Assembly (NCBI GenBank): GCA_023898365.1
Contig: CP060219.1
Location: forward strand, 334,688 to 398,687
Reading direction: 5' to 3'
DNA length: 64,000 nucleotides
Source: Candidatus Woesearchaeota archaeon
Lineage (GTDB): Archaea; Nanobdellota; Nanobdellia; Woesearchaeales; GCA-023898365
Shown here: one piece after another, positions 8,351 to 55,500 of the stretch
Layout: each line of letters begins with the position of its first letter
Position numbering within the stretch: the stretch's first letter is position 1
Made by a program: the position numbers and the translations under genes
The notes under the pieces: generated by a model
The model's database searches: none
Told to the model about the DNA's origin: nothing
Seen by the model: only the letters and a program-made list of their open reading frames with translations

Positions 8351-8526
8351 AGTCTTACAGCTAGGAATTCGAGCCTTTTGGACTATACATAAAGGGTTTC
8401 ACACTTATAAATCTTACTATTTTTACCTCTATATAGTGGTATCAAATGAGAAAAACACTAAATATTTCCTTTCAACACAACAAACTTAATTAATTTCCAT
8501 ATAGAAAATAATTAAAACAAAAAAAA

Positions 8527-37061: not shown

Positions 37062-37144
37062 ATCTGGAAACTATAAAGAATTTATTAAAGTTTCTTTATT
37101 TATTACTTTCAAGTAGTTTCGAATAGGGGTTGAGAAAAAGGAAA

Positions 37145-37226
37145 AGCCTCCGGTGAGATGAAACAAAGCAAAGCTTTGTGGATCTCACCTCAAACTAAAA
37201 AACAAGCCTCCGGTGAGATTTGAACG
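37145..37226. repeat. Two extra partial copies of the tRNA-Thr 3' end downstream of the intact gene: 37145-37160 (16 nt, followed by an inverted repeat that recreates the T-stem GGUGAGAU/AUCUCACC) and 37205-37226 (the 22 nt of the T-loop through the 3' end)
   Basis: agcctccggtgagat occurs at 37145, 37206 and 37307, the last being the real tRNA 3' end. Confidence 0.75.
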
Positions 37227-37306
37227 TTTGAGAGCGAAAGTGAGCAAACCACGGAAAAGTACGGAAGGGCTTTGACAGTGTCACGAAGGGAGTTCAAGAA
37301 ATTAAG

Positions 37307-37378
37307 AGCCTCCGGTGAGATTTGAACTCACGACCGCCTGATTACAAGTCAGGCGCACTACCACTATGCTACGGAGGC
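37307..37378 (-). tRNA. tRNA-Thr (anticodon TGT)
   Basis: Acceptor GCCUCCG/CGGAGGC, anticodon stem CCUGA/UCAGG with loop CUUGUAA, T-arm GUGAG-UUCAAAU-CUCAC and discriminator U. Confidence 0.85.
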
Positions 37379-37418
37379 ACAATCGGAAAAGAACTGCAAA
37401 CGATTTATATTAATTGCG

Positions 37419-37844
37419 CTATAGGAGCCAAACAATCGTGGCGATAAGAGCTCCGAGCACGCCACCAACGAAGACTTCTAAGAAAGTGTGGCCTGGAACA
37501 ACAGAAACTGGTTTCAGTTTGGCTTTTTCTGCAAGTTTATTTAAGAGCACTGCTTGATCACCAACGCTTTTTCGCATGCGAAAGGAATCTACGAGGACGA
37601 TGAGAGCGAAGATGAACGTGACAACGAGCAGATTGCCAAACCCATCATAATAAAACACGGCAAACGTCAAAGAAGAAACAAGGGATGCGTGCATGGAAGG
37701 CATGCCTCCGGTGGTGAGAAGCTCGATGAGAACGATTTTTGGAAAGGATCTGTTTTTCATTCCGTGATGGATCGTCGTAACAATTTTACCTAAGAGTGTT
37801 ATCACCCAGGTCAATAGCAACGTTATCACAATTCGTTCAATCAT
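37419..37844 (-). CDS. Divergent PAP2 / DUF212-family membrane protein (acid phosphatase / vanadium haloperoxidase-related)
   Basis: 141 aa with ~4 TM helices. Motifs SMHASLVSSLTFAV, LVDSFRMRKSVGDQA and VPGHTFLEVFVGGVLG match the DUF212 pattern. Confidence 0.6.
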   Translation of the reverse strand: MIERIVITLLLTWVITLLGKIVTTIHHGMKNRSFPKIVLIELLTTGGMPSMHASLVSSLTFAVFYYDGFGNLLVVTFIFALIVLVDSFRMRKSVGDQAVLLNKLAEKAKLKPVSVVPGHTFLEVFVGGVLGALIATIVWLL

Positions 37845-38800
37845 ACTACTCGCCTAAATCTTGTGTTTAAGAGCCCCCATTCAATAAAAAGCATGAACAG
37901 AGCAAATAACATCAAATAAAAGGACAATTCCCTCTTTAATAAAGTTTGTGTGCTTTCTTGAGGAATGGTAGCGATGGCTTCTTGCACGTCCTCAAGCGTT
38001 TCTAGGTGGAAATAGGATCCGTCAGTAATGTTTGCTAACTCTGTTAGCGCATCATCCTGATAGACAGCAGACACATTATAGTACTCCGGCAAATAACCAA
38101 CAAGACCTTCGTCCGTGCCAATACCAATGCTGTGAATGCGCACTTGATTTTGCGTCGCGTATGCCCCGCTTTGTTTGATAGAATCTGAAAGAAAGGGACC
38201 GTACGTGTTTCCCCCATCAGTAATAAGGATGATGATCTTTGCTTTTTCTGGATTGTTTAACAAAAGGTTCGTCGCAGAAATAATGGTGCCAGGAATGTCT
38301 GTTCCTGACGCCTTTGCGACCTTTATCTCATTGATCGCATCTTTTGTTGCGAATTTATTTGTTTCATAGACTGATCTGACAAGCGGCACCCCTGAGAAAC
38401 TGATCACCGAAAAAGTTGTCTCGAACGCGAACGCATCAACAAGAGAGTTTGAAAACGATTTGGCAACTTCAAGACGTGAGGGTGGCAAATCTTCAGCAGA
38501 CATAGATGCAGAATTATCAATAGCGATAACAACATCTGATTCGCTTGCTTCCGCTGTGTACCAAAACACTGGTGAAGAAACTGATAAGATTATAGCAATA
38601 AAAATCACGACGCGAATCAAGAGTTGGAAGGAGTTTTTTGTTAGCTGATGACTGCCAGAGACTCGTCGTAAGGTTTCAAAATTTGCAAAGCGCATACCTC
38701 GAAATCGTGCATGCTTTAAGGAAAGATAATGGGAGAAGACTAAGAAAGGGATTGCTAAAAGGAGCCAGAGATATACCGGTTCAGTAAATGATATTTGCAT
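37841..38800 (-). CDS. vWA-domain membrane protein, BatA-like
   Basis: Two N-terminal TM helices followed by a vWA domain with MIDAS motif VVIAIDNSASMSAED and ILITDGGNTYGP. It overlaps its neighbour by 4 nt. Confidence 0.75.
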   Translation of the reverse strand: MQISFTEPVYLWLLLAIPFLVFSHYLSLKHARFRGMRFANFETLRRVSGSHQLTKNSFQLLIRVVIFIAIILSVSSPVFWYTAEASESDVVIAIDNSASMSAEDLPPSRLEVAKSFSNSLVDAFAFETTFSVISFSGVPLVRSVYETNKFATKDAINEIKVAKASGTDIPGTIISATNLLLNNPEKAKIIILITDGGNTYGPFLSDSIKQSGAYATQNQVRIHSIGIGTDEGLVGYLPEYYNVSAVYQDDALTELANITDGSYFHLETLEDVQEAIATIPQESTQTLLKRELSFYLMLFALFMLFIEWGLLNTRFRRVV

Positions 38801-38811
38801 AAGTCACCTAG

Positions 38812-39711
38812 TTATGTTCTTGGTTTAAATAACCGTTTACGAAAAAAAGTAATTAGTTTGTCAAAATATTCTTCGTTTGTTTCTAAGACAATGAAATCTC
38901 CTTGCGATCCTGTGAAAATACTGTTAAGTGAGTTTTCGTCCTTTTTGACAAGTTCTTCATATTTTTTTGAAAAATCTTTTGTGTCAATATACATAGCTTC
39001 GTTTGTGGAAGGATTTTCGACCATGAGTTGACCGATGTCCTTTGGTAAATGTCGGTCTCTTGGATCTCGCACGCCAATACCAATAACAGAAAAAAATTGG
39101 CTAAAATTTCTAATGTAATTCGTCCAGTTTGGCTCAAGCCCAATAAAATCTGAAATGAGAATAAGAATACCGCGCGGATTAAGAAATGCAAGCGTTTCTT
39201 TTAGAGGACGCACAATACTTTTTGGACCACCATAATTACGTACGTCATGAAGTTCGTGTTTGATGCCTTGCAAAATCATCGGCCCGATGTTTGGCTCTAA
39301 TCGAACGCGCAAACCATCACTGAACATGCCAAAGCCAACAGCATCGCCACTGCGTAAGATCGCATCAGCAAGGACGTATGCAACTTCTGCGGCATATTCT
39401 ACCTTTAATTTCTGTGTGGAAGAAAACAACATTGAATCTGAAACATCAAGCAAAATAAATACGCGGAAATTACGATAAACCTCAAACTCTTTTACAAGAG
39501 GTTTATTTGATCGAAGCGAAACCTTCCAATCAATAAGCGACGCATCATCTCCAAATTGGTACGCGCGGTATCCTGCAAACTCCATACCTTGGCCTTTAAA
39601 TGATGTGGACCAATCACCTTCAAGTGCATCAATAAGCATATCTCTATTTGCAGCAATTGTTGCATGTTTTTTAGCAACTTCAAGATCAAGTTCGATATGT
39701 CGGAGTTCCAC
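38812..39711 (-). CDS. DUF58-family protein, the MoxR-associated partner
   Basis: 299 aa. FAGYRAYQFGDDASLIDWKV and ILLDVSDSM are typical of DUF58 proteins encoded next to MoxR. Confidence 0.75.
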   Translation of the reverse strand: MELRHIELDLEVAKKHATIAANRDMLIDALEGDWSTSFKGQGMEFAGYRAYQFGDDASLIDWKVSLRSNKPLVKEFEVYRNFRVFILLDVSDSMLFSSTQKLKVEYAAEVAYVLADAILRSGDAVGFGMFSDGLRVRLEPNIGPMILQGIKHELHDVRNYGGPKSIVRPLKETLAFLNPRGILILISDFIGLEPNWTNYIRNFSQFFSVIGIGVRDPRDRHLPKDIGQLMVENPSTNEAMYIDTKDFSKKYEELVKKDENSLNSIFTGSQGDFIVLETNEEYFDKLITFFRKRLFKPRT

Positions 39712-39712
39712 T

Positions 39713-40699
39713 TTACATCACAGGAACTTTCTTTAAGATCTCATCAATAATCTCATCGGAGGAAATGTTTTCAGCTTGTCCTTCGAAGTTGAGGATGATG
39801 CGATGCCTAAGAACAGGTTTTGCCACGGCTTTAATATCAACGGGAGAAACAACGGTGTTGCCACTCATAAGCGCATGCGCCTTGGCTGAAATAAAGAGTG
39901 CGATCGATGAACGAGGACTAGCGCCGTAGTTAATGTATTTGCCAAAGTCAATACCATACTCTTTTGCGTGCCTTGTCGCAGTAACAATGCGAATAATATA
40001 CTGTTGCATTTTTTTGCTCAATACAATGTTGTTAACAATTCGCTGTGCTTCGACAATTTCTTCAGCGCTAAAAACTGGCTGTAAATTAAATGAGTCAAAG
40101 CTCTTTGTCGTCATATTTGTTTCAAGTATCTCGACTTCTTCAGTTGCAGTTGGATAGGACATTTGAAGTTTAAACAAAAAACGATCAAGCTGCGCTTCAG
40201 GAAGCTTGTACGTTCCAAGCTGCTCTACGGGATTTTGCGTTGCCATAACAAAGAATGGTTTAGGTAATTGAAACGTCTCTTTTCCGATCGTCACTTGACG
40301 CTCCTGCATACCTTCTAGCAAAGCTGATTGAACTTTAGGAGGACTTCGATTGATTTCATCGCCAAGAACAAAATTTGCAAAAATAGGTCCTTTAACTGTG
40401 TAAAAGCCTTTTCCTTCTTCGTATGTTGTAATGCCTACAATATCAGAAGGAAGCAAGTCCGGCGTGAATTGAATACGAGAAAATGACGAACCAGTAATAG
40501 TCGAAAGCGTACGAATAATAAGTGTTTTTCCAACGCCTGGAATACCTTCAAGCAAAACATGACCATCGCAAAGCAACGCTTGAAGAAGAAAGTCAATGAT
40601 GTCCTTCTGACCGATAACGATCTTACCCATCTCTTTTTTTACAATAGAGAATCGCTTCCCAAGACTAGCGACATGTCTCGCCAACTCACCCTCGTCCAT
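39713..40699 (-). CDS. moxR: MoxR-family AAA+ ATPase
   Basis: Walker A GHVLLEGIPGVGKT, Walker B, and an overall match to the MoxR/RavA subfamily. 328 aa. Confidence 0.9.
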   Translation of the reverse strand: MDEGELARHVASLGKRFSIVKKEMGKIVIGQKDIIDFLLQALLCDGHVLLEGIPGVGKTLIIRTLSTITGSSFSRIQFTPDLLPSDIVGITTYEEGKGFYTVKGPIFANFVLGDEINRSPPKVQSALLEGMQERQVTIGKETFQLPKPFFVMATQNPVEQLGTYKLPEAQLDRFLFKLQMSYPTATEEVEILETNMTTKSFDSFNLQPVFSAEEIVEAQRIVNNIVLSKKMQQYIIRIVTATRHAKEYGIDFGKYINYGASPRSSIALFISAKAHALMSGNTVVSPVDIKAVAKPVLRHRIILNFEGQAENISSDEIIDEILKKVPVM

Positions 40700-40722
40700 A
40701 AGGGAAAATAGAAGCTGCTTTC

Positions 40723-40730
40723 TTTATAAA
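40723..40730. promoter_or_regulatory. Palindromic TATA box TTTATAAA, 24 bp upstream of the moxR ATG on the minus strand. A second copy at 40767-40774 lies 16 bp upstream of the plus-strand gene at 40790. Together they form a divergent promoter pair.
   Basis: Read from the sequence. The spacing fits leaderless archaeal transcripts. Confidence 0.4.
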
Positions 40731-40789
40731 TCTTGCTGAACAGCCCCAGAAAAAAACAAACAAAAATTTATAAATGAGAACATGTCAAT

Positions 40790-42082
40790 ATGTGGAGGAT
40801 GAGTGACCTAAAAGAGGTGGGTTACATTAGCAAAGCGTCTAGAAAGTTGCTTAAAGAAGCTACTCTCAAGAAGATTGCTTATGTAAATACAAAGCGGAAT
40901 ATCACCGAGAAGGAAGTATACCATCTTGTTAAAGATTTTCTTAGAGAATTTGTCGCAATCGAACACGAAGTAAGTATTGAAGAGTTGCGAGAAGAACTCA
41001 AAAAAGCATTTTTTGAAGCAAAAACGCGAACAAGAATCAACCACTTAATCAGTAAACTCGCATATGTCGAATACAAAGATGAAAATTCATCTCCGGAAAC
41101 GTTACGATCCATATTAAATGAACTTCGCTCCGTTGTCGCAAGCATTTCTGCTGATCAGCCACAAAAAGGCGGATTATTTGGAAAACTCTTTGGACGAAAA
41201 AAAGAAGAGATTGAAGATGTTGCAGAAGTCGACGAAACAATTGATCAAACAGGTTCATTCACACCAACAGAAAATTTAGGTCAAGAGTTCTATCCTGAAA
41301 CAAAAAGCAATCAACCATTCTTAGAAAAACAAGAAACAGAACCAAAAGATGCATTTTTTGATAAGGAAACAAAGGATACAGGAGAGAATAAAGAAGAACT
41401 AAAAGAGAAACCTTCAGAAGAGGATGCCTATGCGTCGTTTTTCTTTTCGGGCAAAAAAACATCTCCAAAAGCAGCCCCTTCAGACGATGAAACACATGCT
41501 AAAAATGAGCAAAATGAAACGTTCTTTTCTAAAATGAGCAAAGAAAGAAGGGCTGAAGAACATAAAGAAGTTGCAAAAGATCCTTCCCCAAGCAAAGAAC
41601 CAGTTCAAGAAAAAGACCGTGAAGTAAAAGAAGAACAAGTCAGGGGTGCAGAGGAAAAAGAGAAAACAACTTCTGTCGAGAAACAAGACAAGACAGCGAT
41701 TCCAGACATCTTTAGTAAGACAAATACTGTTGCAGAAAATGATTCAAAAACTGCAGAAGAACAGAAATCTCAAGAAGCAACCGAAGAAAAACTTGAGTTG
41801 CCTGATAGTTTCGAGGAAGAACCCCATCATAAGGAGAAAAAACATCACACCATCCATATGAAGACAAAAGCTCCTGAAGAAAAACCTCAAGGAAAGAATA
41901 ACGAAGAGAAAATAAATCATCTCGCAAGCGAAGTAAGTGCCGCAATCCACAAAAAAGATTCGACGGGCGCAAAGAAACAATATGCGCAGCTCCTTGAGGT
42001 CTACGAGTCGCTTCCTGATAAAGAAAAAGAAAATTGGTTCGATAGAATCAATATGTTCTATGAAGCAATTAAGATGTTGTAA
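40790..42082 (+). CDS. Highly charged Lys/Glu-rich low-complexity protein (430 aa), hypothetical
   Basis: Long ORF. The central ~250 aa are KE-rich and low in complexity. Both ends are conserved-looking and helical. Confidence 0.55.
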   Translation: MWRMSDLKEVGYISKASRKLLKEATLKKIAYVNTKRNITEKEVYHLVKDFLREFVAIEHEVSIEELREELKKAFFEAKTRTRINHLISKLAYVEYKDENSSPETLRSILNELRSVVASISADQPQKGGLFGKLFGRKKEEIEDVAEVDETIDQTGSFTPTENLGQEFYPETKSNQPFLEKQETEPKDAFFDKETKDTGENKEELKEKPSEEDAYASFFFSGKKTSPKAAPSDDETHAKNEQNETFFSKMSKERRAEEHKEVAKDPSPSKEPVQEKDREVKEEQVRGAEEKEKTTSVEKQDKTAIPDIFSKTNTVAENDSKTAEEQKSQEATEEKLELPDSFEEEPHHKEKKHHTIHMKTKAPEEKPQGKNNEEKINHLASEVSAAIHKKDSTGAKKQYAQLLEVYESLPDKEKENWFDRINMFYEAIKML

Positions 42083-42136: not shown

Positions 42137-45100
42137 CTAATTATATTTTCTGTTTCTCCAGCGATCACGCACGTAGCTGACAATCATCATAAGGATCGTT
42201 ATTGCAATAACCCCTCCTACTGCAAGAACAACCCGTTCAGAAAGTAAATCGGTGAGGGTCACCATACTAAAAAGACCTCTTGGAGAATCAAGATTTATTT
42301 CATTCTTCTCATTATCAATTAGATACTTACATCCATTTATGATGTTATCAAGCTCGGTTAATGCTTGAGAGATAGGAATACTTGATGCTCTTCGTTCAAG
42401 CTCGGTAAGCAGTTCGTTCATTTCAGCACAGGCAGGGTTTGAAGCGAGAAGGTCTCGAGCAAACGTAACTTTTACTTTGTATGCTTCTTCATCGTCAGTT
42501 GATTTCTCAAGAGAGTTGATATGAATTGTTGCGGAGTCGCTTGCAACGGGATCGTCTGTTGTGACATTCACGACGATTTCATACGTGCCACTCGTGCGAT
42601 AATTGCCAAGAGTAAGTAACGTAGATGCGTTCTGCCCAATACCAAGTGAAGCAACGTAATCCTCACTGAATGTTACCGTAACATTTTCAGAGCCGGCAAT
42701 TGCGTTAAAATTAATTCCGTAGAGCGAATCATCCCAGGTGTTCACAACAGTGATGGGAACCGTGACCGTATCATTTTCATAAACGGCAACTACATCGCTA
42801 ACCACTATTGAGAACGGTTCAGGAGAATCAACTTCTTCCTGGAAAGGCACAGTAACTGTTGTGGTTACTGTTCTTGTTCCGCCAGGATTGTTTGATGTTT
42901 GCACATCAATTACAGGATCGGGAACATTAGTAATGACAATGCGAACCGTATTCGAAGAAACATATGCTCCTGCGTCATCAGTTGCGTTGAAGACCACATC
43001 ACAGTACCCTAATGATGTTGGAGTAATGGTTAAAGACGTATCTGTTATGCTCAGTGTTGCAACAGAGCAAGATTCGCCGTAGGCTAAAGAGAAGTTTAAG
43101 GTTGACGATTCCGCACCATCAAGCAAACCATTTGCGCTGGTATCATCATCTGCATCGTAAAAACGCTGAACGCTGTTACGATATATAAAATAATTTGCAA
43201 GTGCAGTTGTTTGTGAAACAGAGAAGTTATCAAGAGGACCATAAAATACAGGAGGACGATTAAGATTGGCAATAGTAATATTCCAACTAAAGTTTGCCGT
43301 GCTATAATACGCATCAGTTGCACTTACGACAATATCATGTGTTCCCGCGGTTGAAAAGTTAAATGATCTGGTGTAATTTGAATTGACCCCCGGGTCGACA
43401 CCAGGCAAATTAAGTTTCTGCACACCATCAACATACCATCTGTAAGAAATATTATTATTTATCTGGGTCGTGTCGTTTGTCGCGAGCGCATCAAACGTAA
43501 CAGTTGCGTTTTCTGAAAAATTGATGGTGATGTTTGTCAAACCACCAACGACAAACCATGAAGTGTTTAGTGAGGTATTTGACATGAAAGGAGTCACTTG
43601 GGTAAATTGAGGGGGAACAGATTCGTTGTAAATGGTGATGTTAACAAGCTGCCAATCGACCAACCCACCCGCATCAGTAACTGAAGCGTTTGCTTCGTAC
43701 ACCCCATACTCTCCTGATTGAGGAACAAAAGAAACAGTCACTTCATTGACATCCGTTTTTGAGTAAGCAAAGCCCGTTGGTGATGCCCCTGTAAAAGCAA
43801 AGTTAAAGGTCAGATTATCATCAAGAACAAAAAAATCAATATCAGTTGCGTAAAAAACATTTTCATAGAGAACATCTTCAACAAGAATGCCAAAATTGAT
43901 GGCATCAGACACATTGTCTTGATTATTGTCCCATATTGGCGCATCGTTTGCATTGCCTATTTCAAAGGAAAGAACTTCATAATCGCACACATTTGCAAGA
44001 TCACAGACCGAAACATTCAATGTTTTATTTCCAACTTGCGCATTTGTTGGTGTAAAATTCATCCAATAAAGCGTCATGTTACCTTGCACCAGACCAAGGT
44101 TTGACGCGTTAAATCCTGCTTCGTATGCAAACGACCAAGTAAGGTTGTCTCCGTCGCGATCAATTGCGGTAAAGTATGATGAACCAAGAATGCCTTGCGT
44201 ATAATTAACAAGAGAAACAGTCATTACAGGCACCGAATTGTTACGAATAGTGATGTTTGCAATAGCAGTTGTTATAGCCTCACCATCATCAACATACACT
44301 TCGAAGAGGTAATTTCCAATTAGACCTGGACCGACTGTAAAATTAAATTCTCCCGATGTGCTATTAATAGTGAAATTAGAATGGTTTGTTGAAAACGTTA
44401 AGGTATCGCCTGCATATGTTAGTTGGTCAACATCAGAATAATTAAGTGGTGAGGAAAACGTTGCATTCACATACCACGTAAAATTTGAAAGATTGTATAT
44501 GCCGTCGGTTAGTTCGTAAATTACCGGAGCATCATTTAGGTTTAAAATGTTAAACGTGACATTATTCTCCGTATAGCCTCCATGATCATCAGTTACTCGA
44601 ATGCGGACGTTTCGGCAGGCGACGTGGTCATTTGTCATAATTTGGTTGATCACGATAGAAGCGTTCGAACCGTTCACTAAGGTGGTGAATGACCAAGGAT
44701 TTGAAAGGGAGCACGTGCGGGGCGTGATAGTGAACGTGATATTGTCTGCAACATCTGCATCGGAAGCGTTGATATAAAACGTGAAGAGATCTGACTGATT
44801 AGTATCAGGAGTGACTAGGTTCGATGTGATCTGCGGCAATTGATTAACAGCTGAAACGTTAATGGTAAAAGAGGTTTCAACTGGCGGCAATAAACTTGCA
44901 TTGTCGCTAATGTTCATATACACCGTCCACAATCCTCTGTCAGCAAATTGAGGCGCGTTGCTTGGACGGTTAAAGGTAACATACCCTTCCGTGTTTGATG
45001 ACTGAACAAAAATAATTGAAGCAAGATCAGTGCTCATGTTAAAGGTGAACGGTTCGTCTCCTTCCTCATCAAACCCAGAAATTGAATAATTAAACGTGAT

Positions 45101-45775
45101 GTCTTCTGTCGCCTGTTGATTCGTTAAATTTGGTAAAAAATATGCTTGATCATTTACTTCTGCAACTGTGTAGGTTACGGTAATTCCTAAGAGCGAGGGA
45201 GTGTCATCTTTTACATAAAAAGTAAAATTGGTGTCACCAATATGTGCTGCTAAAGGTATGCACGTGACTAATCCCGCCCCAGAAATATCGCAGTAGTTTG
45301 TTCCGTCCGTTTCTAAAAAGGTCAGCGCATCACCATCGGGATCAAAAGCTGAAAGCTGTGTTTGGAAAACGACATCTTCTGTTAAGAGCTCATCAGTTGC
45401 ATTTGGAAGGTTAGGAAGGGAATTATTAATGGTGAACAATTTTCCTGCGGTGGCGCTTGTCGAACCATTCCACAACGTCACATTACAACTCCATCGTTCA
45501 CCACGCTGCGCAATATAGGAAAGTAACGTCGTGCGATTGTCAGTGAACGGAATGTTTGCAACTGTCGTGTAAGGAGAACTGCCATTATACCAAGTCACGT
45601 TTTGTTGTACGGTGTCAATTGAGGGTTTCCAAGAACAGATAATGTTGTCTCTTGTTGTAGGAGTTGACGGCGAAATGCTCGGCAGCGTAGAAAAATTTAC
45701 TGCAAGCGCAAATGCTATGATGAAGAGGGCAAGCGAAGTCACAACAAGTGTTTGGAAGAGGTCAACTCGTTTCAT
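42137..45775 (-). CDS. Giant cell-surface glycoprotein-like protein (~1213 aa from MKRVD) with a signal peptide, a sequon-rich beta-rich ectodomain and a C-terminal TM anchor
   Basis: Signal peptide MKRVDLFQTLVVTSLALFIIAFALAVNF, dozens of NxS/T sequons and the C-terminal TM helix VVLAVGGVIAITILMMIVSYV followed by a basic tail. The track ORF starts further upstream at 45841 and overlaps the RHH gene. Confidence 0.7.
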   Translation of the reverse strand: MKRVDLFQTLVVTSLALFIIAFALAVNFSTLPSISPSTPTTRDNIICSWKPSIDTVQQNVTWYNGSSPYTTVANIPFTDNRTTLLSYIAQRGERWSCNVTLWNGSTSATAGKLFTINNSLPNLPNATDELLTEDVVFQTQLSAFDPDGDALTFLETDGTNYCDISGAGLVTCIPLAAHIGDTNFTFYVKDDTPSLLGITVTYTVAEVNDQAYFLPNLTNQQATEDITFNYSISGFDEEGDEPFTFNMSTDLASIIFVQSSNTEGYVTFNRPSNAPQFADRGLWTVYMNISDNASLLPPVETSFTINVSAVNQLPQITSNLVTPDTNQSDLFTFYINASDADVADNITFTITPRTCSLSNPWSFTTLVNGSNASIVINQIMTNDHVACRNVRIRVTDDHGGYTENNVTFNILNLNDAPVIYELTDGIYNLSNFTWYVNATFSSPLNYSDVDQLTYAGDTLTFSTNHSNFTINSTSGEFNFTVGPGLIGNYLFEVYVDDGEAITTAIANITIRNNSVPVMTVSLVNYTQGILGSSYFTAIDRDGDNLTWSFAYEAGFNASNLGLVQGNMTLYWMNFTPTNAQVGNKTLNVSVCDLANVCDYEVLSFEIGNANDAPIWDNNQDNVSDAINFGILVEDVLYENVFYATDIDFFVLDDNLTFNFAFTGASPTGFAYSKTDVNEVTVSFVPQSGEYGVYEANASVTDAGGLVDWQLVNITIYNESVPPQFTQVTPFMSNTSLNTSWFVVGGLTNITINFSENATVTFDALATNDTTQINNNISYRWYVDGVQKLNLPGVDPGVNSNYTRSFNFSTAGTHDIVVSATDAYYSTANFSWNITIANLNRPPVFYGPLDNFSVSQTTALANYFIYRNSVQRFYDADDDTSANGLLDGAESSTLNFSLAYGESCSVATLSITDTSLTITPTSLGYCDVVFNATDDAGAYVSSNTVRIVITNVPDPVIDVQTSNNPGGTRTVTTTVTVPFQEEVDSPEPFSIVVSDVVAVYENDTVTVPITVVNTWDDSLYGINFNAIAGSENVTVTFSEDYVASLGIGQNASTLLTLGNYRTSGTYEIVVNVTTDDPVASDSATIHINSLEKSTDDEEAYKVKVTFARDLLASNPACAEMNELLTELERRASSIPISQALTELDNIINGCKYLIDNEKNEINLDSPRGLFSMVTLTDLLSERVVLAVGGVIAITILMMIVSYVRDRWRNRKYN

Positions 45776-45938
45776 GTGAAAGTAACCGCTTAATTGTTTT
45801 ATTTTTCTGAACATAGGTCTTTGTCTTTGCTGCGAGCTCATCTAAGACCAGTTCTTTAATCGTTTGCTGAGAAATAACTGATGCTAAACGCAAGCGTTGA
45901 TGCAAGTCGTCAGGTAAAGCAATATTCAGTCGTCCCAT
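45762..45938 (-). CDS. Small ribbon-helix-helix (CopG/Arc/MetJ-like) protein, 58 aa. Unannotated in the ORF track.
   Basis: Manual translation: MGRLNIALPDDLHQRLRLASVISQQTIKELVLDELAAKTKTYVQKNKTIKRLLSHETS. The N-terminal beta-strand plus helix (RLNIALPDDLHQRL) is the classic RHH signature. Its stop overlaps the surface-protein ATG. Confidence 0.55.
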   Translation of the reverse strand: MGRLNIALPDDLHQRLRLASVISQQTIKELVLDELAAKTKTYVQKNKTIKRLLSHETS

Positions 45939-45953
45939 GTTACATCCTACACA

Positions 45954-46100
45954 TTAAGTTTTTTTGCCTACTGGTTCAAGTGCTTGCGCATCCTTAAGCC
46001 AGGAGATAACTAGTTCTTTGAGAGAGGTTTCTTCAAGTGTTGCGATCATTTTTAGCTGATGATGCAATTCTTGCGGTAATTCAATATGTAAATTCGCCAT
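45954..46100 (-). CDS. Small ribbon-helix-helix protein, 48 aa, a paralog of the gene downstream. Unannotated in the ORF track.
   Basis: Manual translation: MANLHIELPQELHHQLKMIATLEETSLKELVISWLKDAQALEPVGKKT. It has the same RHH signature. Confidence 0.55.
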   Translation of the reverse strand: MANLHIELPQELHHQLKMIATLEETSLKELVISWLKDAQALEPVGKKT

Positions 46101-46103
46101 AGT

Positions 46104-46148
46104 CAATTAGTTAGCATAGTTCGCTTAGTTCACTTAGTTTCCTAAGTT
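46104..46148. repeat. Five tandem 9-bp direct repeats (NNNTTAGTT: caattagtt, agcatagtt, cgcttagtt, cacttagtt, tcctaagtt) between a TTTATAAA TATA box (46177-46184) and the RHH ATG. Candidate iteron-type operator.
   Basis: Exact 9-bp periodicity of the TAGTT core at 46108, 46117, 46126, 46135 and 46144. Confidence 0.6.
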
Positions 46149-46210
46149 CGTTTACTAATTCATAAGAACTGCGAAATTTATAAAGGTGTTGATTGAAAAA
46201 AGAACAATAG

Positions 46211-48274
46211 TTACTTCTTTGCCCACGTTAATGAATACGTAATTTGCAAGAATAACCGATGCAGATCGTAAAAGACCATGTCCTTTTGCTGCTGCGTTAA
46301 TGGGTCGAACACCTCTTTTAATTCAAAATATTTGCGCTTTGCAATCTCCGTTTCTTGAAATTCGAGGGCTAAGAGTGCATTACGAACACCTAGCTTAATA
46401 CGTTCCACAGGATTTCCTTCGAGATCCAATTCTTGCACAACACGATGAACGTCGCGTTCTTCAACAACGCTAATTTGATACACGAGCATCCGAAGTTCTT
46501 CGATAAGCAACGGAATATCTGCAAAAGTTACTCTGCGATGTTTGAACTCGAACTCAGAAACCTTTGTGTTAAACGATAAGAAAATCTTCTGCAACGTTTC
46601 GGACTTAATTTTTGTGCGAATTTCCTCAAGCAATTCGTTTGATTCGTACTCAAAAGCAAGATCAAACGTTTGTGAAAAAAAGAAGCGACTGAAATCCATG
46701 AGCGAATCAAGAAGCTTTTCAAGAGCGTCTTTTGCAGGATCATTTCCTAACGAAAGAAGTTTATTTTCAAGTGCGGCGAGTTTTACGAGTAAATCATTCT
46801 TTTGGGTTTCCCTGATAAGAATCTGCTTTCGAAATGAAGAAAGCAAGAACCAACCAAGCGTGACCAGCGCTTTATTAATCTTCGTTGAGAATGCACGGTA
46901 TAACACTGCAAGCACAGCAACAGAAAGAATACCGACCATGATAACCCCTGAAAAGACAGGGTTTGTTTCTTCAAAAAAAGAAGGAGATTGCACACCAATA
47001 CAAGGAGAGCAAGGCCCACCACAATCAACACCCTCTTCATCTTGGTTTTTTATACCATCAAAACAAGTCTCGCATGGCTCGCAAATAGGCCCGCCACAAT
47101 CAACACCCACTTCATCATAATTTCTAATGCCATCATGACAATTCTGGCACGGAGCGCAATACGGTCCACCACAATCAATTTCTTCCTCTTCATTATTTAA
47201 TTGGCCATCAGTGCAATTGCCACACGCAGGACAGGGACCCCCACAATCAACACCCTCCTCGCCTTGATTTTGTTCGCCATCAAAGCACGTCAGCAAATAT
47301 TCACATTCTTGCCAGTAATACTTTTTATACTCATTAGGATCACATGCATAAATATCGACACATTTGCGTCGCTGCGTGCCATTACGCAAACACGCACCCC
47401 AATCAGCACATTTCCATAAAGAGGTACAATCGGTAATACTCACACTCGAAGAGGAAGGAGAAGTAGTTTCTTCTTGTACTTCTTGTCGGCAGTTAACTTT
47501 AATTCTCACCAAATTACTTTGAGCGGAAAGATCACCTGGGTCCGTGGCAGTGAAAATAACATACTCCTCTGCGCAAGTAGAGCCTCGAATAAGTACTTCT
47601 CCAGTATCTTCAACAATCACAATATTAACGGAAGAAGTTGGCGTTACCGAAAAATTCAACGTATCACCGTCAGGATCATCAAAATAATCGTTAAGCCAAA
47701 AAACACTGTACAAAATATCTTCTTGAAGCGTTTGATCAGGAATAGGAGATTCTAAATTTGGAGGATCGTTAATATCTAGAACAGTAAATGTGTAGATGGA
47801 AGACGCATTGTTGTTGTCACATCCACTGTTGTCAACAACTTCAATTAATGATTGGTGCAGACCAACAGAAGCTTGAAATCCGTTCAAAGAAAGTGTTGTC
47901 CCAGTGAGCGTAGTGTTCATTTCAAAAACTTCAGTGGCAGAAATAGTATATCCTCCCTCATCAATAATTGAAATGACACACTCATACGCATTATCAACAA
48001 GCGCTGTTGATTGGTTAAAAGTTGCTGAACACCCAGAAAGATCGATAACTGGACGTGCATTAAAACACATTTGCACAGACCCTGTCGCCTTCCCCGAAGC
48101 ATCTGAATTCGTGTCGTGATACATAAATCGCGCAACACTACCTAGTAAGAGAAGATTCTGAGCTATTAAGAAGATCGCTACAAAGAGCACAATTCCTGTA
48201 AACAAACGATCAGATTTCGTTCGAGTAGCAGCAAGATGCTCAAGTGGTTTTTTCTTGTGTTTAGCGCGCTTCAC
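46211..48274 (-). CDS. Surface protein (687 aa) with an N-terminal TM/signal anchor, an ectodomain containing 4 tandem 25-aa Cys-rich CGGP repeats, a second TM helix and a cytoplasmic coiled-coil tail
   Basis: Repeat units of the form C-x-DG-x-x-N-x-x-E-E-G-VDCGGP-C-x-x-C, occurring four times. The underlying ~75-bp nucleotide repeats (ggcccaccacaatcaacaccc) lie at ~47013, 47089, 47164 and 47236. The TM helix VIMVGILSVAVLAVLY is followed by a helical K/E/L-rich C-terminus. Confidence 0.65.
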   Translation of the reverse strand: MKRAKHKKKPLEHLAATRTKSDRLFTGIVLFVAIFLIAQNLLLLGSVARFMYHDTNSDASGKATGSVQMCFNARPVIDLSGCSATFNQSTALVDNAYECVISIIDEGGYTISATEVFEMNTTLTGTTLSLNGFQASVGLHQSLIEVVDNSGCDNNNASSIYTFTVLDINDPPNLESPIPDQTLQEDILYSVFWLNDYFDDPDGDTLNFSVTPTSSVNIVIVEDTGEVLIRGSTCAEEYVIFTATDPGDLSAQSNLVRIKVNCRQEVQEETTSPSSSSVSITDCTSLWKCADWGACLRNGTQRRKCVDIYACDPNEYKKYYWQECEYLLTCFDGEQNQGEEGVDCGGPCPACGNCTDGQLNNEEEEIDCGGPYCAPCQNCHDGIRNYDEVGVDCGGPICEPCETCFDGIKNQDEEGVDCGGPCSPCIGVQSPSFFEETNPVFSGVIMVGILSVAVLAVLYRAFSTKINKALVTLGWFLLSSFRKQILIRETQKNDLLVKLAALENKLLSLGNDPAKDALEKLLDSLMDFSRFFFSQTFDLAFEYESNELLEEIRTKIKSETLQKIFLSFNTKVSEFEFKHRRVTFADIPLLIEELRMLVYQISVVEERDVHRVVQELDLEGNPVERIKLGVRNALLALEFQETEIAKRKYFELKEVFDPLTQQQKDMVFYDLHRLFLQITYSLTWAKK

Positions 48275-50957: not shown

Positions 50958-51311
50958 TTAAATATGTTTCGAAAAACTGGCTTGCATTTTCTTCTCAGCC
51001 CGCTTAAACACCGTCCAAATCGTTCGATTGTCACGACACAACAGTTTCGCGACATCCTTATACGCTAGTTTTTTCTCATGATGCAGATGATACACTAATG
51101 CTTCAAAGATAGTTAATCGTCTATCTGAGAACACCGACAAAGGAACTGAAGCAGACGATTGAGAAGAAGTTACGCGCGTAAAAAGAGATTCGTTTTGTTT
51201 ACGTTGCTCCACATCAGAAAATGCGGGCGAGAGAGATACAGAAGGGGACAAGAGCATACCTTGTATGAGAACGAATTGATTTAGTTGCGAATCAAAATAG
51301 GAAGTATACAT
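50958..51311 (-). CDS. Small HTH_10 (Bat/sigma-70 region-4-like) DNA-binding protein (117 aa)
   Basis: C-terminal RLTIFEALVYHLHHEKKLAYKDVAKLLCRDNRTIWTVFKRAEKKM matches the HTH_10 pattern LT..E.L..A....Y....ELA..LG.S..T...HLRRAE.K. Confidence 0.5.
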   Translation of the reverse strand: MYTSYFDSQLNQFVLIQGMLLSPSVSLSPAFSDVEQRKQNESLFTRVTSSQSSASVPLSVFSDRRLTIFEALVYHLHHEKKLAYKDVAKLLCRDNRTIWTVFKRAEKKMQASFSKHI

Positions 51312-52552
51312 CAGACCTTCCTCCTTGAGCGCATAACAAAGAAAATGATGACAACATTTGAAACAAGAACAATAAGGACGAGCACCACAATAAGACCGAT
51401 GCCTGACGAAGAAGACTCCTTTGCGCCACCTACAACTTGACCAGTTACCTCGCCAAACTTCTCTAAAGAAACTTCGTCTGGTGCAATCACCGCAGAATAG
51501 ATGTCGCTTCGCACCTTCCCATCATAATGCAACGTCACATCAAAATCATACGTGCCAGGCAATATATCCTTTGTATCCCAAAACCCTTTGAGAACAGCGC
51601 TTGAAAACGCAGGCAAACGTTCAGTAGGGGTTTTAAAGGAAGTTACTTCGGCACCGTTTGTCTCCCGCAAGATAACTTCAGCATAGAGTTCCTCAATAGG
51701 ATTATTCCATAAACTGCGTACCAGAAGATCGATGCGAGCAATTTCTCCAAGATGATATGAAGAAACTGCAAAGCTTGCCAATTCTACCGAAAGAGATCCT
51801 GCTTCAAAGATACGATCCTTGATAAGCGATTCTCCATCATACGTAATTGATGCTTTCAACGTGTACGTACCAGGGTTAGGCGGCGTCCATAACGCAGTAA
51901 GTTTTCCTTCCTCTTTTGAGGGAAGCGAAATTTCAGAAGAGGTAACTGTGCCAACAACCTCATTAGCAGGGTTAAGAACGGTGAAGGTTGCGCGCACTGC
52001 TCGCAAAGGATCAGTTCCGACATTCATCGCGGAAACAATGAACTCTACAACATCCGTTCGAGGAACTGCGGTAACTTCAGCTTTAAGATATTTCCCTGGA
52101 TAAGGAACATTAAAACGGAATTGAGAAATAACTGCGGTCGTTGCGGCAATAATGCCATTATCAGTTGCAACAGAATTAACTTCTCCATTACCAAGAGATT
52201 CAGGAAGAAGCAAAATAACCATTTCGAGCATGTGAAGGCCGGGTTCGATATCTCGTGGAAAAGTAAAACTAAACGAGACCGTTTTTTTCTCATCACTCTC
52301 ACGAACCGTAATAACACCAATATCTGATTTGACCGCATCAGATAAGACGCCTGTTGGATACACACTTACTTTGAAACTCTCCCTGTTCGGATTAAGAATG
52401 TCAAATGATAACTGAACAGTCTGACCAGGAGCATAATCTATCAATCGTGCTGCAGGAGAAACAGTAAGGGCAGAAACTTGCGTAACACAAAGCACACTCA
52501 CTAACAAAAGCAAGCCAAGCAACAAACCTTTACTTTGTGTTAATTGTTTCAT
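51311..52552 (-). CDS. Surface protein (413 aa) with a signal peptide and a C-terminal TM anchor; a paralog of 48796-49944
   Basis: Signal peptide LLLGLLLLVSVLCVTQVSA. C-terminal IGLIVVLVLIVLVSNVVIIFFVMRSRRK. Start codon overlaps the stop of the giant gene in an ATGA arrangement. Confidence 0.6.
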   Translation of the reverse strand: MKQLTQSKGLLLGLLLLVSVLCVTQVSALTVSPAARLIDYAPGQTVQLSFDILNPNRESFKVSVYPTGVLSDAVKSDIGVITVRESDEKKTVSFSFTFPRDIEPGLHMLEMVILLLPESLGNGEVNSVATDNGIIAATTAVISQFRFNVPYPGKYLKAEVTAVPRTDVVEFIVSAMNVGTDPLRAVRATFTVLNPANEVVGTVTSSEISLPSKEEGKLTALWTPPNPGTYTLKASITYDGESLIKDRIFEAGSLSVELASFAVSSYHLGEIARIDLLVRSLWNNPIEELYAEVILRETNGAEVTSFKTPTERLPAFSSAVLKGFWDTKDILPGTYDFDVTLHYDGKVRSDIYSAVIAPDEVSLEKFGEVTGQVVGGAKESSSSGIGLIVVLVLIVLVSNVVIIFFVMRSRRKV

Positions 52553-55500
52553 GGAGGATTATCCGCCGTAGCCAAAAAGACAATTAATGTCGACTTAATT
52601 CCTGGCGTCTCATATGTAGGAATGGTAATTTTGAAATCTACTTGTGCCTGATCTTTCGTGTCATTATACTGTAATGTGTGGATGAAACGAGTTGAAACAT
52701 TCGTCACATTAAGCCAACTCGTCGAACTGCCTGTTGTGTTAAACGAAGAAGCCTCATCTTGATCGGCTTTGTACTGGAAGTAAGAGGTGTTGAGTTCTTC
52801 AGTAACAAAGAAACTCTGCGTTGCATTTATTGAAACATTGATGCGCACATTACCATCATTACGAATAACCATAGGAGAAGGGTCATCATCAGTCGAATCA
52901 TCAGTTACCCCCGGATTAAGATTTGAGAAATCAGTCTCATTCGTGACAAGAGAAATACTCACCACATTAGTTACATTAAAGAAATGAGGTGAAGAAAAAT
53001 TAGAACAGCCGTAAAAATCACATGCACGCACTTGGAATTGGAAGGAGCCAGAACTATATTGGGCCAACGTACATAACTCAGTTGTTGTTGTATAATTGTT
53101 GATGTTTTGCGACGAGTTTAGCAAGAAACCATAACAACCAAGACCACTTGGCGCCGTTAAGTTAACCGTGTAGTTAATATCATCTCCGTCCGCATCAGTT
53201 GACGCCGTCCAATTAAATGTAGGGAAACGATTCGTTATTGTTGATTCATTATCAGGATAATCAAGAACAGGAATGGAAGGAAGAGAATTTCCAATAGAAA
53301 CCGCATCAGAATAATTGGTACTTCCAGACCCCGCATTTCCATCATAAGGAGTCACGGTGCAATTCCATGATTCACCAAAAGACGTATGAGCATAATGTAA
53401 AATGCTTGAATCTCCAACTCCCGATGTTTGACCGGATTCGTTTGCAGAAGAATAGTATGCGTCGTTCTTAAACCACGAAACATTTGCCCATAATGTTTCT
53501 CCAGGATTGGAATCGGTTATGGTAAAAGAACATGTCAAATTCTGCGTCGCATTAGGATTTGATGGAGTGATGACGGGTTTATTTACTGAAGGATCAGAAT
53601 TTACAATGCTTAAATTAGTTGAGTTTCCCCAAGAGGATTGATACACTCCATCATCCAATTGAATGCTACAATTCCAATTCTCTCCAACCGACGTATTGTC
53701 GCTTGTGAGAATTGCATAGAATGCTTGGCTTGAGGGATAGTCGTTATTGTAATACCTTGTTTGGTCAAGAACACCATCTTTGAACCAGCGAACAGAAACA
53801 TTTAGATTGTCAAGATCGGAATCATAAATAGTTGCAGAACAATTCAAGTATTCATTGGAACTGTTCATGCCATTTTCTGAACGTAGTTGAGGCGAAGGAG
53901 TTGTTGGCGCAACAGTAACAACAGTCAAATTCACACTATAACCCCATCCACTAAATTCTGCGCCATCGTCAAGACGCATCGCACACGACCAATTATCGCC
54001 AACAGAAGTGTTTGTATAACCCAAAACAGTATCAACAGCAACTTCGTTCGCGTATGAATTGTTGTAATAATCAGTTCTGTCTAATACTCCATTAAGATAC
54101 CATCTCACCGTCACATTAGTGTCATTTCCATTTGGATCATTAACTTGCGCGAAACAATGCAGATCCTGTCCTGTCGCGTTCGAACCATCAGTTGAGTTGA
54201 TTCCTGGCAAAGGAGTATCAGGAGTTGTTGCACCTGGGTCAACGGTAACTTCGCGCGAGGAAGTAGCAATGTTTCCCGCACCATCAATTGCCCACGCAGA
54301 ATAGCTATAGGTTGCAGGAGAGAGATCGCTCTGGTTTCGATATAACCTATTTACTGTGTTGTTATACACCGAACTTATTTCTGCAGCAGTTAAATTGGTG
54401 TTCCAAATTATAAGTTCGTCGAGCATACCTTCAAAGGGTTTGTTAGAGTCACGAATATCATAACCAACAGCCAAATCTCTTGCTGAAAGAATATTTCTTG
54501 CAGTTCCCCCCGTAGAATTGTCTAAAGACCCATCAATGTACACATATGCTGTTGATGATTCTCGCACCACCACCACGTGATGCCACTCTCCATCATCAAC
54601 TGATGATGCAGAATTTAATTGGAATCCATAACTTCCAGACCAATCATAAAAGTATATTGGTCCAGTAGCACGAACAAGAACAGAGTATTGGCCGGTTGTT
54701 ATCTCATCCCGTTGTTGCAGAATTGTTTGCCAGGTACCGGTGCCGTTCGTTTGTAACCAGAAAGAAACAGTAAACGGACCAGTGCCTGAAAGAGGGCCCG
54801 AATCTGTGGGAAATTCTAAATGATTGTTTGTTCCATCAAAATATAAACCGTTTCCATACATGGCAGGAGCAACATCATTAATTGACAACCCGTCCGTGAA
54901 TCTTCCGAAATTATTGTTAGAAGAGTTATCTTTAACACCAGTGGTGTTAACATATTCAAAATTGTAATAGGCAACAAGTGATCCATCCCAATCAAAAAAC
55001 GCGGAGGTGTCAAGCGAATCACTTATTGAAGTGTTCAAAGTAGCGTGATTAAGTGTTCTTGAAGAGCCATCTACTGGTGTTGGCGAGAGCCAAGTAATGA
55101 CTGGAGGAGTCGTATCTGCAAGAACTGAGAACGTGTCCGATGTCGACATCATGTTTGCGTCAGTGTCAATTGCTTGAAGATTAATCGAATACAACCCAGT
55201 CACCGTCAAATTTTGTGGTGTTAAGTTAATATCACCTGTTGCGTCAGTTGATGAAAATATGACCGTGCCATTGGGATACGTGACATTGAAAAGAACGGTG
55301 TCAAGTCCTGACCCGTCAACAGCTGACCAGTTCACGTAGATAGTGTCGACAGACAAAGTAGCAGTAGATGCATTTTTGTATATTTCAACAAGCGGGTCGA
55401 TAAGTACAGTATATGACCTATTTGCAACAGTCATATTTCCCCCTGCATCTATTACGATTGCAGAGAAATTGTAATCAGCGTTTGATAAGCCGGTGAAGTT

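Follow-up and report, generated by a model that had tools for sequence, protein, structure and literature searches.

What two open reading frames encoding 48 and 58 aa and a run of 9-bp repeats are doing directly upstream of a gene for a surface protein of some 1200 residues is the question raised by this locus, which lies in a 64-kb window (the whole stretch of 64,000 nucleotides that was analysed) of a Woesearchaeota genome. DPANN archaea, whose genomes are reduced, are thought to make contact with their hosts through surface proteins; to our knowledge, almost nothing has been established about how gene expression is regulated in these organisms.

Both small genes lie in tandem on the minus strand, as proposed in a first-pass annotation: RHH-A (45954..46100; 48 aa, with its ATG at 46100 and its stop at 45954; H6502_01905, USN45864.1; protein MANLHIELPQELHHQLKMIATLEETSLKELVISWLKDAQALEPVGKKT) and RHH-B (45762..45938; 58 aa; H6502_01900, USN45863.1; protein MGRLNIALPDDLHQRLRLASVISQQTIKELVLDELAAKTKTYVQKNKTIKRLLSHETS). 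They had been called unannotated, which proved incorrect, GenBank carrying both as hypothetical proteins on a 1,131,583-bp contig of a Woesearchaeota MAG; RHH-A is absent from the Logan gene call. The suspected paralogy is borne out by 37% identity over 35 aa (pairwise E 5e-9), and A-type and B-type proteins form separate orthologous lineages, with the nearest neighbour of an A-type protein being A-type in 24 cases and that of a B-type protein B-type in 19. Codon usage of the differences marks both as genuine genes kept by purifying selection: across 12 pairs of RHH orthologues, differences number 40, 14 and 175 at codon positions 1, 2 and 3, respectively. A weak SD-like AGGATG stands upstream of RHH-B, 15 nt past the RHH-A stop; RHH-A, by comparison with what is typical of the source genome, is unusual in having no recognisable SD on its leader of ~54 nt.

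Downstream, the surface-protein gene (42137..45775, minus strand; H6502_01895) encodes 1212 aa, one fewer than first counted, with a signal/TM segment at the N-terminus, Big_9 Ig-like domains, 61 N-X-S/T sequons and a TM anchor at the C-terminus. The ATG of this gene (45775-45773) lies 14 nt inside RHH-B, whose stop (45764-45762) falls 11 nt downstream of that ATG; the junction is thus a 14-nt overlap and not the direct overlap of stop and start codon originally described, the TGA within the ‘ATGA’ at the surface-protein start being out of the RHH-B frame. No promoter of its own and no clear SD were recognised for the 1212-aa gene, and translation may be coupled across the overlap.

The ribbon-helix-helix (RHH) N-terminus reported for the two small proteins is present in both, although each taken singly scores under every Pfam gathering threshold; the best match is ParD (PF09386), at 20.3 bits for RHH-A and 25.2 bits for RHH-B against a cut-off of 27.3. 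Homologues were recovered by an exhaustive HMMER search, a word-index search with RHH-B having matched RHH-B alone, and the orthologues, 39–61 aa in length, are a bare RHH core. Among 53 tiny family members, 35 match PF09386 (best E 9.5e-16) and 31 match RHH_10, and a profile built from them finds RK2 ParD (2an7, E 1.8e-7) and the CopG-family structure 9kkd (7.6e-5) in the PDB, with weak matches to omega (2bnw, E 0.004) and ParG (1p94, E 0.012). An AF2 model of RHH-B (pLDDT 90.1) has an extended segment at residues 1–9 and helices at 10–22 and 27–56; its top Foldseek matches are RHH proteins, among them KacA, AtaR, PutA, Arc and CopG (TM 0.6–0.77, probability up to 0.98, E of at least 0.1). 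The family strand follows the alternating polar/hydrophobic pattern x-N-I-N-I-E-I-P. Profile and model together thus show an RHH fold for both proteins, which would be expected to bind DNA.

Resemblance to the N-terminal domain of ParD, the closest similarity in both Pfam and the PDB, raises the possibility that the pair are ParD-like antitoxins of a type II toxin–antitoxin system. Only the N-terminal part of the 80-position ParD profile aligns, however (positions 1–35 for RHH-A and 1–54 for RHH-B, with scores under the Pfam cut-off), indicating that the C-terminal toxin-binding region is missing from these cores of 40–58 aa, and no toxin gene is present: what follows downstream, at all 39 of the related loci, is the gene of a ~1200-aa surface protein. 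With both defining features absent, the toxin-neutralising C-terminus and the adjacent toxin gene, the antitoxin reading was rejected as scarcely credible.

The sequence between the small genes and their upstream neighbour is organised as a promoter followed by repeats. A TATA box had been placed at 46177-46184, and TTTATAAA is indeed found there on the minus strand (46184-46177), preceded by a BRE-like CAACACC; the whole element occupies 46177..46191, 84 nt upstream of the RHH-A ATG, and TATA-like boxes stand at about -30 in several other first cistrons of the window. A T6 run (46196..46201, minus strand, within ..AAGTAACTATTGTTCTTTTTTCAATC..) just past the stop of the upstream 687-aa gene is a candidate archaeal oligo-T terminator, possibly separating the transcription units of that gene and the RHH genes.

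Five contiguous 9-bp boxes, a predicted operator, occupy 46104..46148 on the minus strand, reading AACTTAGGA, AACTAAGTG, AACTAAGCG, AACTATGCT and AACTAATTG on the coding strand (CAATTAGTT, AGCATAGTT, CGCTTAGTT, CACTTAGTT and TCCTAAGTT as units of the plus strand). They span -48 to -4 from the RHH-A ATG and about +6 to +50 from a transcription start (~46154) predicted purely from TATA spacing. Of the earlier description of five exact repeats, the array stands and the exactness does not: the unit cores are TTAGTT in three of the five, ATAGTT and TAAGTT, with AGTT (AACT on the coding strand) as the only invariant part, and each box carries one or two mismatches to the palindromic family consensus AACTWAGTT. 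An out-of-register AATTAGTAA is present at 46160-46152, and ACTATG, at 8-bp spacing, overlaps the start codon. TRF places an array of period 9 at 46107-46154 (score 47; 5.3 copies with 71% matches), and no phased hexamer run in the window is longer at any period from 7 to 12; runs of at least five copies arose in 0 of 200 second-order Markov simulations. Two pairs of TTAGTT elsewhere (7550-7564 and 7637-7651) were rejected as arrays, being inside a coding ORF, as was a 3-site cluster at 8479-8496, an AT-rich overlap; no second operator is visible in the window. A reading as a replication origin or as iterons found no supporting feature, the GC skew being flat at the locus.

Spurious ORFs beside a fortuitous AT-rich periodic stretch would account for the very short frames and for the degeneracy of the units, but not for the outcome of the simulations, nor for the bias of substitutions towards third codon positions and the retention of ORFs, boxes and synteny in ~40 species; conservation refutes a chance origin, to which a negligible probability is attached.

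The evidence from related genomes begins with four orthologous loci, in three of which a tandem pair of RHH genes overlaps the surface-protein orthologue by 4 nt. A pattern drawn from a four-sequence alignment, M[TV]NINIE[IL], which skews the resulting sample towards canonical strands, retrieved 40 further GTDB loci, 39 of them non-redundant. Without exception, these loci of DPANN genomes and metagenomes have the family's RHH genes, between one and three in number, directly 5' of a homologue of the 1212-aa protein (39 of 39; blastp E 1e-16 to 0), mostly joined to it by an ATGA overlap of 4 nt. The layout is found again in ~40 Woesearchaeota species, and the neighbouring genes (MoxR-DUF58-VWA) are syntenic across species. 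In viral contigs only four weak relatives were found, one of which (L169) carries a family RHH gene in a viral context, with neither boxes nor a surface protein; the module is accordingly no cargo of mobile elements. A search of the literature found no description of a module of RHH genes, boxes and surface protein.

Short tandem repeats directly 5' of an RHH gene are also the layout of parC/ParR and omega sites, and a ParR/parC-like partition site captured in the chromosome had been suggested as an alternative. Such a site would be a centromere of the ParR/ParG/omega type, its RHH-coated repeats serving segregation or DNA tethering; the weak profile matches to omega and ParG (E 0.004–0.012) are in its favour. 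The gene tables of the window and of six related loci, however, contain no ParA, ParM or other NTPase, the locus is part of a 1.13-Mb chromosomal contig with conserved synteny and featureless GC skew, and what the RHH genes are invariably paired with is a gene for a surface protein, so that a partition function is judged very improbable.

A lattice of boxes accompanies the genes across species. The stretch from BRE/TATA to the first RHH start holds 3–11 boxes resembling AACTWAGTT in related loci, which keep equivalent BRE/TATA elements (for example, CGCAAC-TTTATAAA). Over the 39 loci, AACT-to-AACT distances peak at 9, 18, 27 and 36 nt (26, 14, 7 and 5 counts, respectively, against ~0.7 expected); boxes with at most two mismatches average 6.4 per 160 nt in the 39 upstream regions against 0.6 overall, the motif having been derived from the same regions as these enrichment statistics. 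Clusters of at least five boxes occur only close to a first RHH start, at most 81 bp away, and the 861 bp of upstream sequence contain nine copies of ACTNAGT, compared with 15 in 123.6 kb of other sequence. Two loci serve as natural controls: an orthologous locus without RHH genes (L007) has a plain promoter and no boxes, and a locus with a different RHH protein (L005) has different repeats. The box lattice, its linkage to the RHH genes and the linkage of these to the surface protein thus hold across species.

Outside this context the box is less informative. A pattern of two perfect boxes (AACTWAGTTAACTWAGTT), which is stricter than most genuine arrays, has at least 120 matches in metagenomes, most of them probably due to chance, by our estimate, given the size of the collection; only one of the matches listed (L090) adjoins an RHH pair, and the box sequence by itself is therefore not diagnostic. 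Within the set, degeneracy is greatest in the window's own boxes, which have mostly lost the right-half AGTT. The RHH strands of the window are unusual: the predicted base-contacting residues are N3, H5 and E7 in RHH-A and R3, N5 and A7 in RHH-B, as against N-N-E elsewhere. On account of these residues, the match of RHH protein to box is less certain in the window than in other species. At locus L003, T7 stands in place of E7 in both paralogues and AAGTTAG-type repeats in place of ACTWAGT, a possible case of co-variation between strand residues 3, 5 and 7 and box sequence. As a separate observation, perfect palindromic boxes stand at 2.09 in single-RHH loci and 1.04 in tandem-RHH loci (MWU p = 0.014), a contrast that hints at homodimers in the former and heterodimers in the latter but is confounded by GC content and phylogeny and is given no weight here.

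The reading best placed to unite these features, and one considered probable, is that the RHH pair represses its own operon, surface protein included, through a tandem-box operator of the MetJ/omega style laid over the transcription start. From the BRE/TATA promoter, a single transcript would carry RHH-A, RHH-B and then the ~1200-aa membrane-anchored, glycoprotein-like surface protein, the five degenerate AACTWAGTT boxes filling the ~54 nt from the predicted transcription start to the first ATG. RHH dimers (A2, B2 or A/B) would each insert a two-stranded β-ribbon into the major groove of a box and, in the manner of MetJ on 8-bp met-boxes and omega on 7-bp heptads, form cooperative polymers along the 9-bp lattice. 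The coated array would occlude the start site and the early transcribed region, and recruitment of RNA polymerase would thereby be blocked; with the RHH genes placed first in the operon and running into the surface-protein gene, the amount of repressor made would scale with the output of the operon, giving negative feedback on surface-protein synthesis. The pair and its boxes are thus probably a dedicated self-regulating switch for the surface protein. The autoregulated operator put forward in the first-pass annotation gains firm ground in the linkage at 39 of 39 loci and in the conserved lattice; binding and repression are the parts that we infer.

Because the sign of regulation belongs to those parts, and because the whole array of the window lies inside the predicted transcribed leader, the pair might instead bind the array as an activator or architectural factor, or the boxes might act within the 5' leader RNA on translation or stability; the lack of an SD before RHH-A means that leader features could affect its translation. 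The window leader, however, has no significant predicted structure (z = -0.9), RHH domains are DNA binders, and at other loci the boxes start right after TATA (5–36 nt after the TATA start where there is a single TATA candidate) and cross the predicted transcription start, so that some lie upstream of it and outside the RNA. Activation sits poorly with archaeal precedent, in which sites downstream of TATA and over the start site are typically repressive, as for F55 (PMC5569661). These alternatives are accordingly viewed as unlikely, though less remote than a captured centromere.

Extending autoregulation by the RHH pair to the phylum yields a more speculative proposal, offered tentatively: a sensor-less feedback gauge for the DPANN envelope, in which co-evolving RHH paralogues, probably as a heterodimer, would be made from overlapping frames in fixed proportion to a major surface glycoprotein, possibly S-layer-like, and would read out its rate of synthesis on the 9-bp AACTWAGTT lattice over the transcription start. 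In a still more remote variant, the coated array would double as a tether between locus and membrane in the course of co-translational insertion. If true, the gauge would be the first defined cis-regulatory code with a dedicated surface-protein regulator in Woesearchaeota. The module is a concrete and testable candidate regulator–operator pair, with protein sequences, an AACTWAGTT box and a 9-bp lattice in hand; it would illustrate that core regulators can hide among 40-aa ORFs that gene callers overlook or that are labelled ‘hypothetical’, and the RHH pair with its boxes could be adopted as a compact orthogonal repressor/operator part.

Among known systems, the arrangement resembles E. coli MetJ, in which an RHH dimer occupies each 8-bp met-box and abutting boxes form arrays of two to five or more over the promoter. 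Short palindromic boxes set head to tail over a promoter, with presumed cooperative occupancy, are shared; the box here is of 9 bp (AACTWAGTT), the proteins have no co-repressor-binding part, and the setting is an archaeal BRE/TATA promoter with two conserved paralogues that would be autoregulatory and co-transcribed with their target. Omega (pSM19035) and ParG (TP228) are likewise minimal RHH proteins with short tandem repeats (7–8 bp) upstream of their own operon, but are plasmid-borne and double as partners of ParA ATPases, whereas the present module is chromosomal, with no NTPase and with a surface-protein gene as partner. RK2 ParD (2AN7, PF09386), which autoregulates its own operon through its N-terminal RHH domain, is closest by sequence, that domain aligning over residues 1–35; the ParE-binding C-terminal region and the toxin gene have no counterpart here. 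Small archaeal RHH dimers repressing their own promoter are represented by F55 of SSV1, whose tandem-repeat sites overlap the TSS and BRE, and SvtR of SIRV1, a regulator of a structural-protein gene as well, for which polymerisation along DNA has been proposed (PMC5569661); both differ in that they belong to viruses, recognise few sites of unrelated motif (ATAGATAG; imperfect inverted repeats), and have neither a conserved paralogue pair nor co-transcription with the target structural gene. In Euryarchaeota, CdrS activates ftsZ2, is itself under CdrL and has no described tandem 9-bp box array, but its tiny RHH gene lies directly 5' of, and is co-transcribed with, the structural gene that it regulates (PMC7439475), a conserved layout to which the present locus is likened by gene arrangement. 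RHH proteins on tandem boxes are a classical mechanism, and what makes this locus of interest is its lineage, its conservation and its target, with no new principle involved.

On comparative sequence grounds, the locus is a genuine and conserved RHH-RHH-surface-protein operon whose putative operator consists of tandem 9-bp boxes. On the minus strand of the window, a 687-aa membrane protein gene (H6502_01910; 46211-48274) ends at 46211, upstream of the RHH module, and is followed by a T6 run (46201-46196), a promoter of the form CAACACC-TTTATAAA with its TATA at 46184-46177, and five contiguous 9-bp units (AACTTAGGA, AACTAAGTG, AACTAAGCG, AACTATGCT and AACTAATTG; 46148-46104). Next come the ATG of RHH-A (48 aa; 46100-45954), a spacer of 15 nt that includes a weak SD-like AGGATG, RHH-B (58 aa; 45938-45762) and the 1212-aa surface protein ORF, whose ATG at 45775 lies within the end of RHH-B. 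The RHH-B stop falls 11 nt past that ATG, giving a 14-nt overlap in place of the stop/ATG overlap proposed in the first-pass annotation, and the description there of both small ORFs as unannotated holds for function only, since GenBank lists RHH-A, RHH-B and the 1212-aa protein as hypothetical proteins of a Candidatus Woesearchaeota MAG, the source of the window (H6502_01905, _01900 and _01895; 1.13-Mb contig).

Approximately eleven full-length orthologs of the 1212-aa protein, at 29-37% identity, are found in Woesearchaeota. Among eight ortholog loci inspected, five (L002, L003, L004, the P0154 locus and L006, where both RHH ORFs are uncalled) have a tandem pair of small RHH genes flanked by a ~615-660-aa gene and the ortholog, with overlaps of mostly 4 nt; L008 has one RHH gene and L007 none. 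L005 (2860-3130) has no NINIEIP-type pair and instead a single unrelated RHH-like 57-aa gene with weak Arc/RHH_1 matches, which precedes the gene before the surface-protein ortholog, shares a 4-nt overlap with the 624-aa gene and has different upstream repeats (GTATAC x2, TTGATA x2), suggesting non-orthologous replacement of the regulator. Upstream of that cluster (2480-2810) lie tRNA-like segments and a duplicated GCGCAGTACCAGGTTGT element, its copies ~110 nt apart, which may represent an opposite-strand tRNA gene that is split or contains an intron.

A GTDB scan with one genome per species and the strict peptide pattern M[TV]NINIE[IL] returned 40 loci, with two RHH genes in 27, three in one and one in 12; the ORF following the RHH gene(s) is a homolog of the 1212-aa protein in 39/39 non-redundant loci (blastp E 1e-16 to 0), ~22 of them with an ATGA-type junction. 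Nearest neighbours in tandem loci pair A with A in 24 cases and B with B in 19, and only three tandem loci point to recent duplication or homogenisation; by sequence, the first and second RHH genes are separate orthologous lineages. The records are titled as Woesearchaeota, Nanoarchaeota, Nanobdellati or unclassified archaea, and about a third as 'uncultured Methanosarcinales' or Methanobacteriota (L017, L019, L023, L024, L027, L029, L030 and others); the latter names are probably placeholders or mistaken taxonomy on module-bearing MAGs.

The neighbourhood of the module is conserved as a whole. Orthologs of the 687-aa protein (614-703 aa) always lie upstream of the RHH genes in the loci examined; the window protein matches no Pfam family and has two TM segments, one N-terminal and one ahead of a helical C-terminal domain, with an Ig-like part and four to five Cys-rich 'DCGGPC' repeats between them. 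A MoxR AAA+ ATPase, DUF58, VWA/BatA and DUF212 set lies directly downstream of the surface-protein gene, both in the window (36303-42082) and in most orthologous loci (L002-L007), and a divergent ~430-500-aa acidic low-complexity protein is encoded between the two. The module itself is located in a long surface-protein gene island: a giant minus-strand ORF of at least 3812 aa (52549-63987) has its end at 52549 and comes as close as 13 nt to the edge of the window, followed on the same strand by more surface-type genes, including one (51311-52552) whose 413-aa product matches CARDB below threshold.

RHH-A and RHH-B are paralogs (37% identity over 35 aa), each with ParD (PF09386) as best Pfam match, under the gathering cut-off. 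With both proteins as query, exhaustive HMMER searching yielded 185 proteins (E <= 0.001); of the best 150, nearly all are 38-65 aa long with the consensus MxNINIEIPDELHKxLKxxA...TLKELVI. A profile of 53 relatives, 35 of which match PF09386 (best E 9.5e-16), matches the RK2 ParD RHH domain (2an7, E 1.8e-7) and also a CopG-family protein, omega and ParG. The confident AlphaFold2 model of RHH-B (pLDDT 90.1) shows two helices after an extended N-terminus, and the PDB folds it matches best are those of RHH proteins (such as KacA, AtaR, PutA, Arc and CopG), with E-values weak for so short a chain. Across 12 ortholog pairs, differences at codon positions 1/2/3 number 40/14/175, implying purifying selection on the RHH frames. 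The window RHHs are the most divergent, with strand residues N-H-E and R-N-A versus N-N-E elsewhere. Despite the ParD likeness, a type II antitoxin reading fails, as both a toxin-binding tail and a toxin gene are absent. A 39-aa family member on a predicted viral IMG/VR contig (L169 4001-4120) has small ORFs and a gene resembling DNA methyltransferases as neighbours, and box array and surface protein are both absent there.

The period-9 array (46107-46154; 5.3 copies, 71% matches, TRF score 47) is the longest phased hexamer run of the window at any period from 7 to 12, and 200 simulated 64-kb sequences (second-order Markov) all fell short of five copies. The repeats are less than the five exact copies first described: TTAGTT is exact in three of the five units, the others reading ATAGTT and TAAGTT, and AGTT/AACT alone is invariant. 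Each unit is one to two mismatches off the consensus AACTWAGTT, and by sequence the array is a degenerate member of a cross-species box class; no second box array is visible within the 64-kb window. Related upstream regions share little common sequence, yet all have a BRE-like/TATA element followed by AACTWAGTT-like boxes, with a mean of 6.4 boxes (<=2 mismatches) per 160 nt in 39 non-redundant upstream regions versus 0.6 overall in the loci. AACT-AACT distances peak sharply at 9, 18, 27 and 36 nt (26, 14, 7 and 5 counts versus ~0.7 expected), and AACT-AGTT distances at 5, 14 and 23 nt. Across ~430 kb of loci, no cluster of at least five boxes is farther than 81 bp from a first RHH start; in six syntenic loci, 861 bp of upstream sequence holds 9 copies of ACTNAGT, a motif derived from the same regions, versus 15 in 123.6 kb elsewhere. 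The promoter of the RHH-less L007 is plain, with boxes absent. Chance origin of the ORFs and array is ruled out by this conservation. The box sequence alone is not diagnostic, since metagenome matches to two perfect boxes were mostly unrelated, with an RHH pair adjoining only one of the 120 matches listed.

In L003 (4618-4744), T7 replaces E7 in the strand of both RHH paralogs, and upstream ACTNAGT gives way to repeated AAGTTAGCGAA and GAGTTAGTAAC elements, which may reflect protein-operator co-variation. GC-richer loci carry a GTCGAC(GA)-like motif 3-40 nt before the first RHH start, downstream of the box array (L002 715-724; L004 4738-4746; L012, L023, L026, L032), with TTGACT as the only window equivalent; the motif may serve as a variant ribosome-binding site or as a further regulatory site.

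Where a locus has only one TATA candidate, the boxes begin 5-36 nt past the TATA start and the array continues over the predicted transcription start in the direction of the ATG. In the window, TATA-like boxes at ~-30 (30-38 nt before the start codon) precede several other first cistrons (such as 17749-19167, 19652-21502, 33358-34344 and 39713-40699), implying leaderless mRNAs, and internal cistrons use a GGTGA-type SD (GAGGTGA/AAGGTGA); the TATA of the module lies 84 nt upstream of the RHH-A ATG, and the array accounts for essentially all of the additional ~54 nt. Such a leader might act as an RNA element, a reading left unsupported by a fold z-score of -0.9 for the window leader and by boxes that, in other species, begin upstream of the predicted transcription start. 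A captured ParR/parC partition site, the other function first proposed for the repeats, is contradicted by the lack of an NTPase partner in the gene tables of the window and related loci and by a chromosomal, syntenic location; an omega/ParG centromere fails on the same grounds. The autoregulated RHH operator proposed for the surface protein stands as the main reading, on conserved linkage and the 9-bp boxes, with binding and repression predicted.

MetJ met-boxes (8 bp) and omega heptads (7 bp) each take one dimer per box, with dimers touching each other, and the tandem abutting palindromic boxes here are closest to these. A 102-aa relative (P0004) is a natural single-chain fusion of two RHH units of the family, as in SvtR-like proteins, consistent with the tandem paralogs acting together as one dimer. 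The large gene, starting inside RHH-B without its own promoter or a clear SD, should follow the RHH cistrons in expression. At archaeal promoters, a factor at or downstream of TATA blocks recruitment of TBP/TFB or RNA polymerase. F55 and SvtR are RHH examples of such blocking (PMC5569661). Repression is predicted from the equivalent box position; array position, box likeness to MetJ/omega and gene overlap together would give negative feedback on the whole operon, where we infer DNA binding, sign of regulation, dimer composition and translational coupling alike. No description of an RHH-RHH-surface-protein module was found in the literature; judged by its sequence features it is of the classical RHH autorepressor kind, with putative DNA binding and repression, and the nearest archaeal precedent for an RHH gene co-transcribed with a structural gene is cdrS-ftsZ2 (PMC7439475).
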